A DNA stretch of 64,000 nucleotides from an uncultured Acidobacteriota bacterium (GTDB lineage: Bacteria; Acidobacteriota; Thermoanaerobaculia; Multivoradales; SZUA-115): contig CAWDVR010000005.1 of assembly GCA_963805975.1 (NCBI GenBank), positions 480,001 through 544,000 on the forward strand. Direction: 5' to 3'. The first letter of the stretch is position 1; the number at the start of each line of letters is the position of its first letter. Positions 33,167-41,327 of the stretch are shown piece by piece. The notes below the pieces were generated by a model that saw only the letters and a program-made list of their open reading frames with translations, ran no database searches and was not told where the DNA came from. A program made the translations under genes and the position numbers.

Positions 33167-36100
33167 TCAAGCGTCTGGCTCGGTCACCAAGCTCTCCACG
33201 CGATAGCTCGCCTCGGCCGCTGCGACCGAGAGGGCCTGGGCGGCTGCCCGGATCTCGTCGATCCGCTCCGAGCTCGGGCCCTCGACGGCTGCCCAAGTGA
33301 GCAGGCGCTCGAAGGACTCTCGGTGGAAGTAGGTCCAGCCCTCGAAGCGGTTGAGGCGCAGGGCGAGGCGCATGTCCGGCTCGCCGAACCATGCCGACCA
33401 GGCCGCCGGTGCGCTCACTCGAAGGGGCGGCAGAAGACCGGCGACCAGCACCTTGAGCTCGAGCAGGGCATCGCGGGCCGGCTCCTCGCCGGCTCCCAAG
33501 CCCTGGAACGAGGCGAGGAGCTGCTTGCCGAGCAGCAGGTCGTCGAGCAGGTCGCGGGACGATACGACGGTGCCGGCGATCGCGGGAACCTCACCCAGGC
33601 GGCGGAGGAGGAACCACGCGTAGAGCACCGCCAGCGCGGGTACGGCTCCGTCGGCCGGTTCGGCGGTGAGAAAAGCGCGAGGGTCGAAGTCAGCCTGCAT
33701 CTCGGCTGCCTCTGGGGCACCTTCGGCGAGGATCGGCGCCTCCTCTTCCTCCAGGTCCGAGGCCGGTGAGGCGAGCCACGCGACCACGGCCTCCAGGTCC
33801 AGGCGAGCGGCGCGGGCGAGACCGGCGAGCCCTTCAGAATCGGCCGGCGGCTCGGCGTTCGCCGGCTCCGCCGAGTTGAGCGCCTCGGTTGCCCCCTCGC
33901 TCGCCCCCTCGCTCTCACGGTGCCGCTCGAGCGCCTGGAGGAAGGCGAGGAGATGCTCCTCCACCTCGGCGAGCACCGCTACCAAGGGCTCGGCCGGGGC
34001 ACGCGAGAGGGCGGCGTCGAGGAAGCGATGGACGAGCTCCGGCTCGATCAGGGTGCGGAACGGCCCGAGCACCGCTTCGAGCGTGGGCTCGAGCAGGGCC
34101 TCGGCGAGGCTCGGCACCCCGCGCCCGGCGAGCGCCGCGGCGAGCGCGGCCCAGCGGCCGTCCAAGTCCTCGAAGATCGCCTCGAAGTCGAGAAAGACGT
34201 GGCATCCGTAGCCGCCGAGCGCCAGGAGCAGCCCGGCGCTCACGATCTCGCGCGGATCGAAGAGGTGCTCGAAGCCGGTCACGGCGTCGCGGCAGGAGAG
34301 GAGCAGCGGGCGCCTGTCCTCCGGGTCCGGTTCCTCGAGGCCCAACGTGTGCGCGAGCGTCTCCCAGCGCAGGTGCGGCCGCTCGGCGCCTTCCACTTTG
34401 AAGGCGATCGGCACCGAGCGGCGCAGGCGCCCGCTGGTCGTGCCCGGCCGGTTGTGGAAGACGACCAGGGCCCGCTCCTCGCCCAGCCGGTTGGCGTAGG
34501 CGAAGACGTCCTCGTCCACCACGCCGAGGGACTTCTCGAAATCGAAGAGCACGAAGCTAAGGGCGCCGGCGAAGAGCCGCCGCCGCTCGAGGAGCGGCAC
34601 GATCTGGCGCTCGTGGCGGGCCACGATCCAGGGGTCCGGCCGCTCGTCGCGGTAGGCGCGCGCGTACTCCATGCCGTAGCGCTCGACGAAGCCCTCGATC
34701 TGGCCGTGACCGAACATCGGCAGGCCCGGCAGGGTGGCGAGGAGGGTGGCGGCGCCGAAGTACTTGTCGCCACTCCCGAACTGGTCGATCGCCGTGCGCT
34801 CGTCCGGGTTGCTCATGAAGTTGACGTACCGTTGGAGGATTCCCGGCTCGAAGGCGAGGACGTTCTTGATCGCCTTGCGGTAGTCGGCATTGCGCTCGTC
34901 GCGAAGCAGGATCATGAACGCGCTGTTGTACACGCGGTGCATGCCGAGCGAGCGCACGAAGTAGGTTTCCATGAGCCAGAACGCCTCGGCCAGGAGCAGC
35001 GTGTCCGGCGCCTCCAGGGCCACGCGGTCCACCACCTCGCGGAAGAACTCGACCGGCATCCGGCGGTCGAACTCCTCCTCGGACAGGCCGTGCTCGGAGC
35101 GCGAGGGGATGTCGCCGCCGCTCCCCGGCGGCGGGTACCACAGCCGCCGCACGTGGCGGCGGGCGAGGGTCATGGCGGCGTCGAAGCGGATGACGGGGAA
35201 GCGCCGCGCGACGTCGAGGATGGTCTCGAGCACCGCCTCGCGCACCTCCGGCTGCAAGTAGTCGAGCTGCGCCGTGTCGTTCCACGGCGTCGAGGTGCCG
35301 TCGTTGCCGTGGTAGAGGTAGGCGATCTCTTCTTGGACGCGGTCCACCCGCTGGAAGACCACGGCGGCGTCCGTGCGGTCGTAGTAGTGGTCCTCGAGGT
35401 AGATGCCCACGTCCGGGTCGGGTGAGAGGTCCGGGCCGCCGAAGGTGTAGGCCCGAAACGGCGGCTCTGGGACCTGGAGGAAGCGCTCCGGATGCTCGAG
35501 CACCCACTCGGAGTCGATGCCGAAGTGGTTCGGCACCATGTCGCAGGCGAGGCGGAGGCCGTGCTTCAGCGCCTGCCGGCGCAGCTCGTCGAGGGCCTCC
35601 TCGCCGCCCAGCTCGGCGGCGATGGTGTAGGAGTCCACGGCGTAGGCCGAGGCCGCCGCCTCCGGGTTGCCCGTCGCCTGCTTGATCTGCCGCGAGGCGG
35701 CGCTCCTCTGCCAGAGGCCGATCAGCCACAGGCCGGTGAAGCCGCGTCGGGCCAGGAGCTCGAGCTCGCTCTCCGGGATCTCGTCGAGGCGGGTGATCGG
35801 CCGGCCGTGCGCGACCGAGAGCTGCGCCAGCCAGACCAGCGTGTTCTTGGCCATCAGCACCAGCCGCGGCATCCAGTCGAGGTCAGGGCTGAACTGTTCG
35901 GGGCCTTCGGGCTCGGGCTCCGCCTCCGGCACCTCGACCGGCCCCGGCCCCGGCGGGAAGACCGGCCGCTCCTCCTCGCGCAGCAGGTCGGCGGCGCGGA
36001 GCTGCCGTGCGGCCTGCGGCCCGGGCGGAGGCGGGGGTGCGTACTCCCGGGTGAGCAGGCGGAGCTGGCCGGAGAGCGATCGCGGTTCCTCGATGGCCGG

Positions 36101-36832
36101 CGCCTGGAGCGCCTCGAACAGGCTGCGGCGCTCCTCCGGCGGCGAGGTGGCGGTCGGCGCTTCGGGGTAGGCCGGCCGGTCGGCCAGGAACTCCTCGAGC
36201 GCGGTGATCACCTCCGGGTAGGCCGTCTCGCGCCGCAGCACGCCGTCGTCGAACAGCTCGCGGAAGGGCGCAAAGGCCGGGCTCGAGTTGGCGAGCCAGA
36301 GGATCACCAGCTCCTCGATCAGGATCTCGCGGTGGCTGCGGCCGCCGGTCTCGGCGGCGAGGTAGTCCTCGAGGGTAGCCTCGCCCGTCCACACCGCGAG
36401 CGGCGGGAACTCGCGCGCGAAAGCGAGGAGCGTCGCCTCCACGCGCTCGGGCCCCAGGCGATCGCCGATCCAGGCGAGGGCCTCCGCGAGCACGCCGCCG
36501 TCCACCTCCCGCCGGTAGTGCTCGACCATGGAGTGCAGCAGCTCGTGGACCAGGCCCAGGGCGTAGATGCGGGCCGGGGTGACGGCGAGGGCGAGGTCGC
36601 GGTCGACCTCCGAGAGCTCCGTGGCCAGCCGGTCCGCCAGGCGCCGCGCCGCCGCCACGTCCGCGAACACGGCGCCGCCGGCGAGCGAGAAGAGAGAGGA
36701 GTCGAGCCCGAAGCGCTCGCGGGCGCGGCGGGAGACGTGGAGGTCGAGACGGGGCGATCCGTGAGGAGGCGGGCCGCTGCTCGAGGTCAGCCTGATGCGA
36801 GGCAGCCAGCGGGCGGTGAGCGGCACGGTCAT
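33167..36832 (-). CDS. Large GH13 alpha-amylase-family protein
   Basis: LWLIGLW, SAYAV..Y, LACDMVPNH, WNDTAQL, IRFDAAM (nucleophile), LLAEAFW (acid/base), MSNPDE. Confidence 0.88.
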   Translation of the reverse strand: MTVPLTARWLPRIRLTSSSGPPPHGSPRLDLHVSRRARERFGLDSSLFSLAGGAVFADVAAARRLADRLATELSEVDRDLALAVTPARIYALGLVHELLHSMVEHYRREVDGGVLAEALAWIGDRLGPERVEATLLAFAREFPPLAVWTGEATLEDYLAAETGGRSHREILIEELVILWLANSSPAFAPFRELFDDGVLRRETAYPEVITALEEFLADRPAYPEAPTATSPPEERRSLFEALQAPAIEEPRSLSGQLRLLTREYAPPPPPGPQAARQLRAADLLREEERPVFPPGPGPVEVPEAEPEPEGPEQFSPDLDWMPRLVLMAKNTLVWLAQLSVAHGRPITRLDEIPESELELLARRGFTGLWLIGLWQRSAASRQIKQATGNPEAAASAYAVDSYTIAAELGGEEALDELRRQALKHGLRLACDMVPNHFGIDSEWVLEHPERFLQVPEPPFRAYTFGGPDLSPDPDVGIYLEDHYYDRTDAAVVFQRVDRVQEEIAYLYHGNDGTSTPWNDTAQLDYLQPEVREAVLETILDVARRFPVIRFDAAMTLARRHVRRLWYPPPGSGGDIPSRSEHGLSEEEFDRRMPVEFFREVVDRVALEAPDTLLLAEAFWLMETYFVRSLGMHRVYNSAFMILLRDERNADYRKAIKNVLAFEPGILQRYVNFMSNPDERTAIDQFGSGDKYFGAATLLATLPGLPMFGHGQIEGFVERYGMEYARAYRDERPDPWIVARHERQIVPLLERRRLFAGALSFVLFDFEKSLGVVDEDVFAYANRLGEERALVVFHNRPGTTSGRLRRSVPIAFKVEGAERPHLRWETLAHTLGLEEPDPEDRRPLLLSCRDAVTGFEHLFDPREIVSAGLLLALGGYGCHVFLDFEAIFEDLDGRWAALAAALAGRGVPSLAEALLEPTLEAVLGPFRTLIEPELVHRFLDAALSRAPAEPLVAVLAEVEEHLLAFLQALERHRESEGASEGATEALNSAEPANAEPPADSEGLAGLARAARLDLEAVVAWLASPASDLEEEEAPILAEGAPEAAEMQADFDPRAFLTAEPADGAVPALAVLYAWFLLRRLGEVPAIAGTVVSSRDLLDDLLLGKQLLASFQGLGAGEEPARDALLELKVLVAGLLPPLRVSAPAAWSAWFGEPDMRLALRLNRFEGWTYFHRESFERLLTWAAVEGPSSERIDEIRAAAQALSVAAAEASYRVESLVTEPDA

Positions 36833-36879: not shown

Positions 36880-36975
36880 CGAGGTGCGAGTGCCCCGAGT
36901 GTCCTGGTCCGGTGCTCGAGCTCCCTGGCGGGCGGCCTGCGCTCCTCCCAGGACACTCGGGGCACTCGCACCTCG
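36880..36975. repeat. Hairpin element copy 2: perfect 28-bp inverted arms around the same 40-nt core
   Basis: Arms 36880-36907 (CGAGGTGCGAGTGCCCCGAGTGTCCTGG) and 36948-36975; core 36908-36947. Confidence 0.9.
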
Positions 36976-37065: not shown

Positions 37066-38118
37066 ATGGCTTCCACTCATATCGGCATCGGCATCCAAGG
37101 GTTCGGCCGCATCGGCCGGAGCCTGCTGCGCCTGCTCTACGAGCGCCATGCCGTAGAGGGGCGGGACGACCTGAGACTGCTCGCCATCGCCGATCCCGCC
37201 GATCCCAAGGCCCTCGCCTACCTCGTCCGCTTCGACACCCTGCTCGGGCGCTTCCCGGCCCCCGTCTCTCTCGATGGCAATGCTCTTCTGGTCGGCGGCC
37301 AGCCCATTCACGTCGCGAAGACGGACCAGCCCGGCCAGGTGCCGTGGGGCGAGCTGGGCGTCGACGTGGTGATCGAGGCCTCCTCCAGACCGCGGCGCCG
37401 CGCCGACCTCGAGCAGCACCTGGCGGCCGGCGCGAAACGGGTGATCCTCTGCTCGCCGCCCGCCGAGCCGCCGGACCTGACCGTGGTCGAGCCCTTGAAC
37501 GGCCACCTGCTCTCCCGCGAGCAGCGGATCGTCTCCAACGCCTCTTCCACCGCCCACTGCGCGGGGCCGGTGGCGAAGGTCCTCGCCGACGCCTTCGGCA
37601 TCGAGCGGCTGTTTCTCGCCACCGTCCACGCCTACACCGACCAGCAGCGGCTGGCCGACGTGCCGGAGAGCGACTGGCGCCGCGGGCGGGCGGCGGCCGA
37701 GAACGTGATCCCCCAGGAGACCAACGCCGGGGCGATGCTCGAAGAGCTGATCCCCGAGCTGGCCGGCCGGGTGACGGCGATGTCGATGAACGTGCCGGTG
37801 GCGAACGGCTCGCTGGTCGATCTCGTCTGCTGGCACCAGCGCGAGGTCACGGCCGGGGCGATCAACGAGGTTCTGCGCGCCGCCGCGGCGAGCGAACGCT
37901 GGCGCCGCGTGCTCGCCTTCGAGACCGAGCCCATCGTCTCCTCCGACGTGCTCGGAAGCTCCGCCTCCGCCGTCTTCGACTCGGAGGCCACCATGGTCCT
38001 CGGCGACCACGTGTCGAAGACCCTGGCCTGGTTCGACAATGCCAGCGGCTACGCGCGGCGCGTGCTGGAGCTGATCGAGCGTTTCGCCGCCCTGGACCGG
38101 GAGGGCGACACGCCGTGA
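37066..38118 (+). CDS. GAPDH-like protein lacking the catalytic cysteine
   Basis: GFGRIGR and HAYT are retained, but NASSTAHC replaces NASCTTNC. Confidence 0.85.
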   Translation: MASTHIGIGIQGFGRIGRSLLRLLYERHAVEGRDDLRLLAIADPADPKALAYLVRFDTLLGRFPAPVSLDGNALLVGGQPIHVAKTDQPGQVPWGELGVDVVIEASSRPRRRADLEQHLAAGAKRVILCSPPAEPPDLTVVEPLNGHLLSREQRIVSNASSTAHCAGPVAKVLADAFGIERLFLATVHAYTDQQRLADVPESDWRRGRAAAENVIPQETNAGAMLEELIPELAGRVTAMSMNVPVANGSLVDLVCWHQREVTAGAINEVLRAAAASERWRRVLAFETEPIVSSDVLGSSASAVFDSEATMVLGDHVSKTLAWFDNASGYARRVLELIERFAALDREGDTP

Positions 38119-39152
38119 GCGCGATCCGGATCGGCATCAACGGCTTCGGGCGCATCGGCCGGAGCGTCTTCCGTGTGCTGCACGAGGCGCGAGTCGGCCA
38201 CGGCCGCGACCGGGAAGAGGGCGCCCGGCTCGAGGTGGTGGCGATCAACGACCTGTACGAGAACGAGCAGCTCGCCTACCTCTTGGAGCACGACACGGTG
38301 ATGGGCCGCTTCGAGGGCGAGGTCGCGGCGGACGCCGAGTCGATGACCGTCGACGGCCGGCGCATCGAGATGACGGCCGAGAAAGACCCGGCGGCGATCC
38401 CGTGGAGCGCGCTGGGCGTCGACTTCGTGGTCGAGTGCACCGGCGTCTTTCGCACCCGCGAGGGCCTGGCGCGGCATCTCGCCGGCGGCGCGCGGAAGGT
38501 CGTCCTGACGGTGCCGGCCGAGGACGAGATCGACGCCATGATCGTGATCGGCGTCAACGAGCACACGCTGAGACCGGAGCACGCGCTGGTCTCGAACGCC
38601 TCCTGCACCACCAACTGCCTGTCGCCGATCGCCAAGATCCTCGACCAGGCGTTCGGCATCGAGGAAGGGCTCATCACCACCGTCCACGCCTACACCAACG
38701 ACCAGCGGCTGGCGGACGTGCCGCACAAGGACCTGCGCCGGAGCCGCGCGGCGGCGGAGAACGTGATCCCCACCACGACCGGCGCGGCGCGCGCCGTGGG
38801 CAAGGTGCTGCCCCACCTCGACGGCCGCCTGGACGGCATTGCCGTGCGCGTGCCGGTGCCGGACGGCTCGATCGTCGATCTCGTCTGCCGCGTGCGCGCC
38901 AGGCCCACCGCGGCGCAGGTCAACGCCGCCGTCCGCGCCGCCGCCGAAGGGCCGCTCGCGCGCATCGTCGAGTACAGCGAGACGCCGCTGGTGTCCTCCG
39001 ACGTGATCGGCAACCCGCACTCGTCGGTGTTCGACGCGCTCTCGACCCGCGCCACGGGCGACGGCTACCTGCGTGCCGTGGCCTGGTACGACAACGAGTG
39101 GGGCTACTCGAACCGGGTCGTGGACCTGCTCGCGCTGATGGCTAGAATGTAG
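38115..39152 (+). CDS. gap: Type I glyceraldehyde-3-phosphate dehydrogenase
   Basis: INGFGRIGR, SNASCTTNCL, HAYT, IPTTTGAA, RVP, WYDNEWGYSNR. GTGA overlap with the upstream gene. Confidence 0.95.
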   Translation: MSAIRIGINGFGRIGRSVFRVLHEARVGHGRDREEGARLEVVAINDLYENEQLAYLLEHDTVMGRFEGEVAADAESMTVDGRRIEMTAEKDPAAIPWSALGVDFVVECTGVFRTREGLARHLAGGARKVVLTVPAEDEIDAMIVIGVNEHTLRPEHALVSNASCTTNCLSPIAKILDQAFGIEEGLITTVHAYTNDQRLADVPHKDLRRSRAAAENVIPTTTGAARAVGKVLPHLDGRLDGIAVRVPVPDGSIVDLVCRVRARPTAAQVNAAVRAAAEGPLARIVEYSETPLVSSDVIGNPHSSVFDALSTRATGDGYLRAVAWYDNEWGYSNRVVDLLALMARM

Positions 39153-39200
39153 CCGACTCCCGCCTCGACCGCCGTTCGCGGAGCCCCCAGGAGATTGTCG

Positions 39201-41327
39201 ATGCCGTCATCGAAGACGCAGATCCGCGTGCCCTGCCTGCCGGTGGCCGACATCGAGCTGCCGGGCGAGGTGGCACGGCTCTACGAGCTCGCCTACAACC
39301 TGTGGTGGACCTGGAGCTCGCAGGCGCGGATGATGTTCCGCGCGATCGACCCCCACGCCTGGGAGCTCTACCGCAACCCGGTGCAGCTCCTGATCAACGT
39401 CGAGCCCTCGCACTGGCGGCCCTTGCTCGACAACCGCGAGTTCCTCTCCACCTACCGTGAGGTGCTGGCGCAGTTCGAGGACTACGTGCACCGCTCGGAG
39501 CCCACCTGGTTCGAGCGAAAATACAAGAGCTACAAGGGCGGGCCGATCGCCTACTTCTCGATGGAGTACGGCCTGCACGCCTCGCTCGCCATCTACTCGG
39601 GCGGCCTGGGTGTGCTCTCCGGGGACCACGCGAAGAGCGCCAGCGACCTGGGCTTGCCCTTCGTGGCGGTCGGCCTCGCCTACCGGCGCGGCTACTTCCA
39701 CCAGACCGTGGACGGCGAGGGCCGCCAGCAGCACACCTACCCGGAATACGACTTCGCCCGCCTGCCGCTGCGCCCGGCGGCGGACGCCACCGGCCAGGAG
39801 CTGCGGGTGAAAGTGCCGCTGCCGGGCCGCGAGGTCCAGGCCCGCGTCTGGGTGGTGGAGATCGGTCGCGTGCCGCTCCTGCTGCTCGACACCCACGTGC
39901 CCGAGAACCATCCCGCGGACCGGCCGATCACCGGCACGCTCTACGTCTCCGGCCGCGAGATGCGCCTGGTGCAGGAGCTGGTGCTGGGCGTCGGCGGCGC
40001 ACGGGCGCTCGCCGCGCTGGGGCTAAGGCCGGCCGTGTGGCACATCAACGAGGGCCACTGCGCGCTGCTGCAGCTCGAACGGCTGAGGACGGTGCCGCCC
40101 GCGGAGCTCGGCAGGGAGATGGTCTTCACCACCCACACGCCGGTGCCGGCCGGCAACGAGGCCTTCGACCGCGACCTCGCCGCCACCTATCTCGCGCCGT
40201 GGAGCGAGGAGACCGGCCTGCCGCTCGCGGATCTGCTGGCGCTCGGCGAGGCGGGGCAGAGCCCGGGGGACACCGCCTTCAACCTGACCGCGCTCGCGGT
40301 GCGCACCAGCCGCGCGGTCAATGCCGTCTCCAAGCTCAACGCCCAGGTGACGAGCCGCATGTGGGGCCACCTGCTGCCGGCCCCGAAGGAGGGGCAGGAC
40401 GCCATCTTCCCGATCACCAACGGCGTCCATCCCTCGAGCTGGGTGGGCCGCGACGTGCGCGCCCTGTTCGCGAGCTACGTCGGCAGCGACTGGCAGGAGA
40501 AGCTGCTCACCGAGGCGGCGTGGCGGCGCTTTCGCGAGGTGCCGGACGCCGAGCTGTGGGCGGCCCACCAGGAACAGAAGAGGCGGCTCGGGACCCTGAT
40601 CCGCGACCGCTGCCGCGACCAGTTCGCCCGCCACGGCCGCTCGCCCGGCGAGCTGCGCACGGTGGACGAGCTGTTCGACCCCGCGGCCCTGACCATCGCC
40701 TTCGCCCGCCGCTTCGCCACCTACAAGCGCGCCAAGCTCATCTTCTCGGACCTGGCGCGCCTCTCCACCCTGCTCTGTGACGACGACACGCCGGTGCAGC
40801 TCCTCTTCGCCGGCAAGGCCCACCCGGCCGACCAGGCCGGTCAGGCGCTGATCCAGCAGATCTTCGCCCTCTCGCAGACGCCGTCGCTCAAGGGCCGGGT
40901 GATCTTCCTCGAGGACTACGACCTGCGGGTGGGCCGCAGCCTGGTGCAGGGTGCGGACGTGTGGCTCAACACCCCGCGGCGGCCCATGGAGGCCTCCGGC
41001 ACCAGCGGCCAGAAGGCGGCGATGAACGGCGCCCTCAACCTGAGCATCCTCGACGGCTGGTGGCCGGAAGGCTTCGACGGCGAGAACGGCTGGGCGATCG
41101 AGGACGAGGTCAAGCCCAGCGAAGCGGAGCAGGATGCGGCCGACGCCGAGACCCTCTACCGCCTGCTGGAGCAGGAAGTGGTGCCCGCCTTCTACGACCG
41201 TGGCGCGGACGGCCTGCCGCACGCCTGGATCGCGCGCATGAAAGACGCCATCGCCACCATCACGCCGCGCTTTTCCTCCAACCGCATGGTGCGGGACTAT
41301 GTGGAGCGGAGCTATTTTCCGAAGTAA
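39201..41327 (+). CDS. glgP: Alpha-glucan (glycogen/maltodextrin) phosphorylase
   Basis: AYFSMEYGL, YSGGLGVL.GD, NEGH, FTTHTP, ARRFATYKR, EASGTSGQK (PLP lysine). Confidence 0.95.
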   Translation: MPSSKTQIRVPCLPVADIELPGEVARLYELAYNLWWTWSSQARMMFRAIDPHAWELYRNPVQLLINVEPSHWRPLLDNREFLSTYREVLAQFEDYVHRSEPTWFERKYKSYKGGPIAYFSMEYGLHASLAIYSGGLGVLSGDHAKSASDLGLPFVAVGLAYRRGYFHQTVDGEGRQQHTYPEYDFARLPLRPAADATGQELRVKVPLPGREVQARVWVVEIGRVPLLLLDTHVPENHPADRPITGTLYVSGREMRLVQELVLGVGGARALAALGLRPAVWHINEGHCALLQLERLRTVPPAELGREMVFTTHTPVPAGNEAFDRDLAATYLAPWSEETGLPLADLLALGEAGQSPGDTAFNLTALAVRTSRAVNAVSKLNAQVTSRMWGHLLPAPKEGQDAIFPITNGVHPSSWVGRDVRALFASYVGSDWQEKLLTEAAWRRFREVPDAELWAAHQEQKRRLGTLIRDRCRDQFARHGRSPGELRTVDELFDPAALTIAFARRFATYKRAKLIFSDLARLSTLLCDDDTPVQLLFAGKAHPADQAGQALIQQIFALSQTPSLKGRVIFLEDYDLRVGRSLVQGADVWLNTPRRPMEASGTSGQKAAMNGALNLSILDGWWPEGFDGENGWAIEDEVKPSEAEQDAADAETLYRLLEQEVVPAFYDRGADGLPHAWIARMKDAIATITPRFSSNRMVRDYVERSYFPK

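Follow-up and report, generated by a model that had tools for sequence, protein, structure and literature searches.

A conserved GAPDH paralogue with a degraded substrate site, encoded in tandem with an intact gap gene: a candidate non-catalytic subunit

A window of 64,000 nucleotides from an uncultured bacterium of the Acidobacteriota (contig CAWDVR010000005.1, positions 480,001 to 544,000) carries on its forward strand two tandem genes of the glyceraldehyde-3-phosphate dehydrogenase (GAPDH) family. The upstream gene A (37066..38118; ATG start, TGA stop) encodes a 350-aa pseudo-GAPDH with the full GAPDH fold and a degraded substrate site, and the downstream gene B (38115..39152; GTG start, TAG stop) encodes an intact type I GAPDH of 345 aa. 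A preliminary description of this DNA had presented A as a pseudo-GAPDH coupled to an active GAPDH, and its interpretation has been borne out in so far as A is a conserved, selected paralogue, non-catalytic as a GAPDH and tied to an active one: among 138 distinct full-length A-type genes, gap was found directly downstream of 132, six were situated at a contig end and none stood alone. The pseudo-GAPDH family is real and conserved, and it is apparently undescribed; no description of a pseudo-GAPDH/gap family was found in the literature searched, whose coverage left out most subscription journals and supplements. Judging from the genes, we consider it rather probable that A is a non-catalytic subunit co-assembled with B into a mixed GAPDH tetramer, the stoichiometry of which would probably be 2:2.

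The gene pair and the substrate site of A

At the junction of the two genes (38100..38118, forward strand), the stop of A and the start of B share the GTGA overlap noticed earlier (38115-38118), and a GGAGG sequence (38100-38104) is localized inside the end of A, 10 bases 5' of the start of B; translational coupling of A and B at this junction is likely. As was also stated in the preliminary description, both paralogues are full-length and contain neither a frameshift nor an internal stop. The proteins share 42% identity, and the GC contents at third codon positions (GC3; 0.93 for A and 0.96 for B) go with a codon pattern typical of real genes.

Standard GAPDH numbering was put on A by alignment to B and to 1NQ5, and the active and phosphate sites were defined after PMC12041015, PMC5385343 and PMC2662861. 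The Ps site comprises Thr179, Asp/Thr181 and Arg231 (PMC12041015, PMC5385343), and the Pi site Ser148, Thr150, Thr208, Gly209 and Arg231 (PMC2662861, PMC5385343). In A, the position of the catalytic Cys149 is occupied by Ser161 (codon TCC, 37546..37548). The further substitutions are Ala163 at Thr151, His164 at Asn152, Gln193 at Asp181, Asn220 at Gly209 of the Pi phosphate loop (37723..37725), Asn242 at Arg231, which is the substrate-phosphate arginine and the site of the family signature (37789..37791), and Ala326 at Glu314 (38041..38043), where most family members carry Gly; all these codons are on the forward strand. Retained are Asp32, Ser148, Thr150, His176 (His188 of A), Thr179, Arg195, Thr208 and Asn313, together with the glycine-rich NAD loop and the S-loop core. 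Neither phosphate site is intact: Ps keeps Thr179 and has Gln at 181 and Asn at 231, and Pi keeps Ser148, Thr150 and Thr208, with Asn at Gly209 and Arg231 gone. All motifs quoted in the preliminary description (NAD loop, HAYT, S-loop, NASSTAHC, IPQETNA, NVP) are present in A. The change from IPTTTGA to IPQETNA, which it placed at the phosphate site, removes Gly209 but spares the phosphate-binding Thr208. As A has neither the nucleophile nor the arginine common to both phosphate sites, the established mechanism leaves it no plausible GAPDH chemistry, and A appears to be non-catalytic as a GAPDH.

Against TIGR01534 (type I GAPDH), A scored 305.6 bits, under the cut-off of 367.2, and it passed no other listed family, whereas B (422.3 bits) exceeded this cut-off and has every catalytic and phosphate-site residue. 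Assignment of A as an ArsJ-associated GAPDH was rejected (NF033735: 246.3 bits for A and 355.8 for B, against a cut-off of 450), and so was its assignment as Epd (TIGR01532: 259.3 bits against 530.55; Ser at the essential cysteine). Epd, too, is a paralogue of GAPDH whose phosphate sites are altered (PMC12041015), but it is an active homotetramer dependent on its cysteine, while A falls under the Epd cut-off and is nested among gap partners.

The AlphaFold model of A has the GAPDH fold (predicted local distance difference test score 91, predicted template modelling score 0.89), with low confidence confined to the S-loop, as is expected for a single chain. In sequence and fold, the best matches were the GAPDH of G. 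stearothermophilus and its engineered C149S/C149A mutants (template modelling scores of 0.87-0.91, 41% identity), the best PDB sequence match being the C149S mutant. Compared with type I GAPDH (EC 1.2.1.12; 1GD1, mutants 1NQ5 and 1NPT), of which B is a full member, A is alike in fold, NAD loop, Asp32, His176 and S-loop, but it differs by the missing Cys149, Asp181, Gly209, Arg231 and Glu314 and by its score below the cut-off. Ser at position 149 is also present in another genome of the same genus (G001, 87% identical), and it is therefore not a sequencing error.

Linkage, residue record and selection in the A-type family

Homology searches gave 188 loci with the 138 distinct full-length A-type genes, which, after removal of duplicates and truncated copies, left 120 pairs. 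Two of these (L097 and L100) were set aside because both copies retain the catalytic residues and form a separate clade, so that 118 pairs were analysed. The two excluded loci (L097:1495-3560 and L100:277-2342) hold a second, independent tandem gap pair, the upstream copy of which carries His at Asn152, like the pseudo-GAPDH family; it may represent the same process at an early stage, reached convergently.

The stop of A and the start of B overlap in 91 of the 118 pairs, and the two genes are spaced by at most 20 bases in 108 (the start was uncalled in six). A 609-aa database protein, in which an A-type chain is joined to an out-of-frame B-type chain (P0269), probably reflects an error of gene calling or sequencing at the overlap and is no true fusion. 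For the co-occurrence survey, genomes of the source's class with at least 90% completeness were screened by profile searches for B and A (thresholds 1e-88 and 1e-108, respectively). Both genes were found, adjacent, in 46 of the 111 genomes, neither in 65 and just one in none, a stricter tie than was visible from the window; the surveyed genomes are kin and statistically non-independent. One of the 46 paired genomes (G062, locus L059 among the 118 pairs) is unpublished, and nothing is concluded from it by itself. Even inside one genus the pair has a patchy distribution (four of six genomes in g35), which indicates that both genes were gained or lost together.

The pair was found in 29 of 41 near relatives, in 17 of 151 genomes of the phylum and, within a further class, in 12 of 21 genomes, as well as, at a stricter threshold, in two other phyla (2 and 1 of 151 genomes). 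Records of the A family are labelled as Acidobacteriota, Desulfobacterales, Deferrisoma and other Deltaproteobacteria, Myxococcales, Anaerolineae, Krumholzibacteriia, Planctomycetota, Gemmatimonas and Actinomycetota; nearly all are metagenome-assembled, and single labels may be binning errors. One named member, which has Ser149, is WP_459941204.1 of Deferrisoma palaeochoriense, a cultured species and thus a candidate host; among its relatives in that class, gap followed the A-type gene at 12 of 12 loci. When 1.84 billion cluster representatives were searched, 13 of the best 113 full-length matches fell within the A clade.

The downstream gap copies of all 120 pairs possess Cys149, His176, Thr179, Arg195 and Arg231. 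Among the 118 A orthologues, Arg231 is retained in three, Gly209 in four, Thr151 in one and Glu314 in none. It should be stressed that position 149 behaves differently: it is Cys in 62, Ser in 30, Asn in 12, Val in six, Ala in four, Pro in two, and Gly and Ile in one each (Thr and Phe occur in the wider family), and on the A tree its Cys/non-Cys state switches 15 times, against a single switch for Arg231. Likewise, the best 120 database matches to A include 88 with Cys149 and none with Arg231, and the best 120 matches to a divergent member, from the second sub-clade, include none with either residue. The consistent losses of the A family are those of Arg231 and Glu314, that of the cysteine does not define it, and the tree points to an order of loss in which Arg231, Glu314, Thr151 and Gly209 went first and Cys149 later, repeatedly. 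The preliminary description had put the emphasis on the cysteine, and had itself named its retention in orthologues as evidence against the proposal; more than half of them do retain it. With position 149 switching so often and the four other residues lost family-wide, that emphasis was too narrow.

His176 is present in 115 of the 118 A proteins and Asp/Glu32 in 117. Within the NAD site, positions 97, 119 and 314 have changed, while the adenosine half is retained in most lineages. Both sub-clades conserve His152 and Asn231, and the early-branching L058 and L060 depart from GAPDH mainly at positions 209, 231 and 314. At the other extreme is genus g12, in which the A proteins of all seven loci read (L189, L190, L192 and L244-L247) have Arg10 replaced by Leu and His176 by Arg, lack Asp47 and carry Phe at 149, the RLADVP core of the S-loop being retained. 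On the same lineage, the S-loop of the partner B changed at five positions, so that segment 42-51 of A and the S-loop of B are both altered, with segment 42-51 of B and the middle of the A S-loop unchanged (a single event); this pair is a good case for asking which surfaces touch. In the Deferrisoma-type sub-clade, the S-loop of A is remodelled and its 42-51 segment is altered too.

Three cluster representatives outside the A clade (P0385, P0386 and P0427) lack Cys149 and have Arg231, and other dead GAPDH lineages may exist. At one locus (L186:912-1905), the downstream gap has an S-loop unlike those of all other partners, a possible recombination or mis-assembly.

A forms a single clade, with support of 100/100 in an IQ-TREE analysis of 52 sequences and of 97 and 99 in larger FastTree runs, and is nested among its own gap partners, with which it forms a clade supported at 100/97. 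The median ratio of nonsynonymous to synonymous substitution rates (dN/dS) was 0.126 for A and 0.116 for B, with a maximum of 0.57 for A (86 of 97 close pairs had usable synonymous distances), and the ratio between the A genes of the window and G001 was 0.18; these values come from simple counting, in which dS is underestimated at high GC3. Neutral decay, named in the preliminary description as an outcome that would speak against its proposal, is far from such values. Together, the trees and the ratios show that a single duplication, in the lineage of its partner, gave rise to A and that A has been under purifying selection since. The A tree is 1.35 times as long as the B tree. Both trees match (Mantel r 0.73, the highest of 999 permutations being 0.32; 66 of 115 splits common), which is weak evidence because adjacent genes share their history anyway.

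The relaxation of A is local. Relative to B, changes per site are 40-fold in the Cys149 motif, 4.8-fold in the loop after PLVSSD, 4.3-fold in the C-terminal NEWGY helix, 3.3-fold in the ETG loop, 3.2-fold in the Pi loop and its helix and 1.8-fold in the S-loop, whereas there is no relaxation in the PLVSSD segment (1.0), in segment 42-51 (1.1) or in the last strand (0.7). Arg10, Arg13, Asp47, Asp186, Arg194, Arg197, Asp282 and Asp293, which we take to be interface residues (the roles of the segments are partly assumed in the same way), are nearly invariant in A. The S-loop follows the R axis, and Pro188 within it borders the adenine pocket of the subunit across that axis (PMC5385343). Inter-protein mutual information in the 118 pairs (effective number about 57) ranked variable surface positions highest and gave no interface signal. 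Per-branch co-change (138 pairs, 262 branches) between segment 42-51 of A and the S-loop of B had an r of 0.07, with 175 of 500 null sets as high, and the best of 24 comparisons reached 0.15 (19 of 500 null sets), so that neither A-B nor A-A contacts gave a clear signal.

Proposed role of A and competing explanations

Known bacterial type I GAPDHs are homotetramers encoded by a single gene (PMC5385343, PMC10318897). In the mixed tetramer that we propose, a duplicated subunit of such a homotetramer would have remained part of it, would have been deprived of its active site and would have become necessary. The stop/start overlap would yield A and B chains in roughly equal amounts, A would contribute its S-loop to the neighbouring subunits, and B would now depend on A, because of which neither gene would be found alone.

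Comparable designs are known. In BbsCD of Thauera aromatica and in petunia benzaldehyde synthase, which are alpha2beta2 Rossmann-fold tetramers, two of the paralogous subunits are active and two are inactive, and assembly depends on the inactive one (PMC13418739). A and B fit the same pseudoenzyme-subunit pattern, as a homologous pair, one member of which lacks catalytic residues and is under selection, and by analogy the pair likely works in a similar way. The differences are that those proteins are short-chain dehydrogenases of special pathways, whereas A and B, whose joint assembly is proposed, belong to core glycolysis. PDX1.2 and the PRPS-associated proteins are dead duplicated paralogues that have retained their interfaces and join the active oligomer (PMC6829848; bioRxiv 10.64898/2026.06.01.728777), but they are eukaryotic and have other folds, and PDX1.2 is stress-induced while A is likely made in step with B. 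A likely works either as these pseudoenzymes do or as the inactive subunits of the BbsCD type do.

The likeness to plant chloroplast GAPDH drawn in the preliminary description proved loose. The chloroplast A2B2 enzyme is a 2:2 tetramer of two paralogous chains that arose by duplication (PMC4436894), and the architecture proposed for A and B is the same. However, GapB regulates through a CP12-derived C-terminal tail with two cysteines, whereas the tail of A is short; none of 116 A tails carries such a two-cysteine, CP12-like extension, and regulation of the GapB type by A is thereby ruled out. GapB is also catalytic, which A appears not to be.

What else A might do is less certain. The adenosine half of the NAD site is retained in most lineages, and it is therefore likely that A has kept the ability to bind NAD(H) or a different adenine nucleotide; it may tune B. 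In genus g12, the NAD motif is eroded and yet the S-loop core is retained, for which reason the invariant core role of A looks structural. That A is a hard-wired allosteric sensor, with NAD(H) or an adenine nucleotide at the adenosine site, in an obligate A2B2 GAPDH with which a large group of mostly uncultured bacteria would run glycolysis, is a tentative and rather doubtful extension; A would then switch the two active subunits through the S-loop interface, the subunit asymmetry of GAPDH having been turned into a dedicated regulatory chain.

Several observations weigh against the mixed tetramer or against parts of it. It is proposed here from genomic evidence, and more than half of the A orthologues have Cys149 and nearly all have His176, while the conserved, non-random His152 and Asn231 could mark another function. 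The S-loop of A changes faster than that of B and is remodelled in the Deferrisoma-type sub-clade, and the eroded NAD motif of genus g12 speaks against nucleotide sensing as the core role. The agreement of the two trees carries little weight for neighbouring genes, and the co-occurrence comes from kindred genomes. Finally, at two loci B is broken beside an intact A (a frameshift in L035 and an internal stop in L215), both of which may be assembly errors.

Among the rival explanations, we regard it as unlikely that A stays outside the tetramer of B, merely co-expressed, and forms its own oligomer with a separate job, such as that of a nucleotide- or metabolite-binding regulator, an assembly chaperone or a glycolytic scaffold. 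GAPDHs are known to moonlight; as all interface residues of A are retained, A4 is no less possible than a mixed form, and the joint change of the S-loop and segment 42-51 of A in the Deferrisoma-type sub-clade is what self-contacts would give. However, one would expect such a protein to become separated from gap or to be lost on its own, and neither a lone A among the 138 genes nor a genome with one gene among the 111 was found, while every neighbour other than gap varies. Improbable, in our estimate, is also that A is still an enzyme with altered substrate or chemistry (e.g., acting on a non-phosphorylated aldehyde) through Ser148, His152, His176 and Asn231. The frequent Cys149, the nearly constant His176, the conservation of His152 and Asn231 in both sub-clades and the few deviations of L058 and L060 would suit such an enzyme, but position 149 accepts nine other residues (S, N, V, A, P, G, I, T and F), so that A has no conserved nucleophile. 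The A of the window has Ser, the substitution used to inactivate GAPDH for crystallography (PMC2662861), one lineage (g12) is without His176 as well, and apart from gap no pathway gene is conserved beside A.

That A is a young duplicate in decay or the product of a sequencing error may practically be dismissed. A single base (TGC to TCC) would suffice for the change from Cys to Ser, but G001 has the same Ser, the dN/dS values are low both for this pair and in the median, and the A clade spans several phyla; the linkage to gap, the dN/dS values and the single well-supported clade rule out a pseudogene and a sequencing error. A live alternative is neutral entrenchment, which is a variant of the mixed-tetramer proposal and concerns why A is retained: changes in both chains after the duplication would have destabilised the homotetramers, and A would have no regulatory role. 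The strict two-way co-occurrence, the tolerated loss of the NAD motif in genus g12 and simulations in which heteromers replace homomers without benefit (PMC11066126) agree with it, whereas the near-universal Asp/Glu32 and the glycine-rich loop, kept in most lineages, exceed the apparent need of a scaffold, and with half of the enzyme mass dead an abundant glycolytic enzyme would be costly. On balance, we hold entrenchment as the sole reason to be possible and not especially likely.

Glycolytic setting, surroundings and significance

Asp32 and Pro188 in B presumably indicate the NAD-using type of GAPDH. In three genomes (G014 and G024, single-contig and 99% complete, and G033), the pair comprises the only GAPDH-like genes, and B is therefore the glycolytic enzyme there. 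Genes found near the pair at the 118 loci were those for 6-phosphofructokinase (pfk, 24), phosphoglycerate mutase (gpmI, 8), phosphoglycerate kinase (pgk, 7), aldolase (fba, 6), glucan phosphorylase (6) and glycerate kinase (6), as counted in flanks of 1.5 to 5 kb, which were often cut, and with 13 of the 30 commonest neighbour clusters scanned; besides gap, A has no constant neighbour across these loci.

The source genome carries, outside the window, a third, divergent gap beside pgk (L239, G000:C5:129576-130586), with Asp at Gly209, Ser at Asp181 and a score of 367.1 bits against the TIGR01534 cut-off of 367.2. In 15 such copies from relatives (L194-L208), Cys149, His176, Arg231 and Glu314 are all present and Gly209 is kept in two; pgk is situated within the same 4-5 kb locus in 14. 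This pgk-linked gap may be an Epd-like or specificity-shifted enzyme, B being then the main GAPDH.

In the window, an alpha-glucan phosphorylase gene (39195..41327, forward strand) follows the pair; it is a lineage-specific neighbour outside the conserved pair and is likely co-transcribed with it. On the other side, a gene on the reverse strand, oriented away from the pair (33167-36832), encodes a 1221-aa alpha-amylase-family protein with weak NCBIfam matches, and with the phosphorylase gene it makes up a glucan-use cluster; amylase relatives occur near the pair at five of the 118 loci. Between the amylase-family gene and A (36880-36975), there is a perfect 28-base inverted repeat with a 40-base loop, and since this stretch has 34 matches in the genome, including itself, it is a dispersed repeat resembling repetitive extragenic palindromes and no specific element. 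A scan for promoters and terminators around the pair gave nothing informative.

As databases label A-type proteins as ordinary GAPDH, metabolic models count an enzyme that is likely non-working, and gene B expressed alone may misbehave. Few enzymes have been studied as much as GAPDH. If the proposed assembly is true, a dead subunit dedicated to it in several phyla would give this enzyme a quaternary design that is new and might add a point of control to glycolysis, which would bear on the use of subunit asymmetry and cooperativity in GAPDH. The members of the family range from those retaining Cys149 to those that have lost nearly the whole site, and they thus bear on whether heteromers originate by selection or by entrenchment; such a natural series, with nearly intact proteins at one end and fully dead ones at the other, would show how pseudoenzyme subunits evolve.

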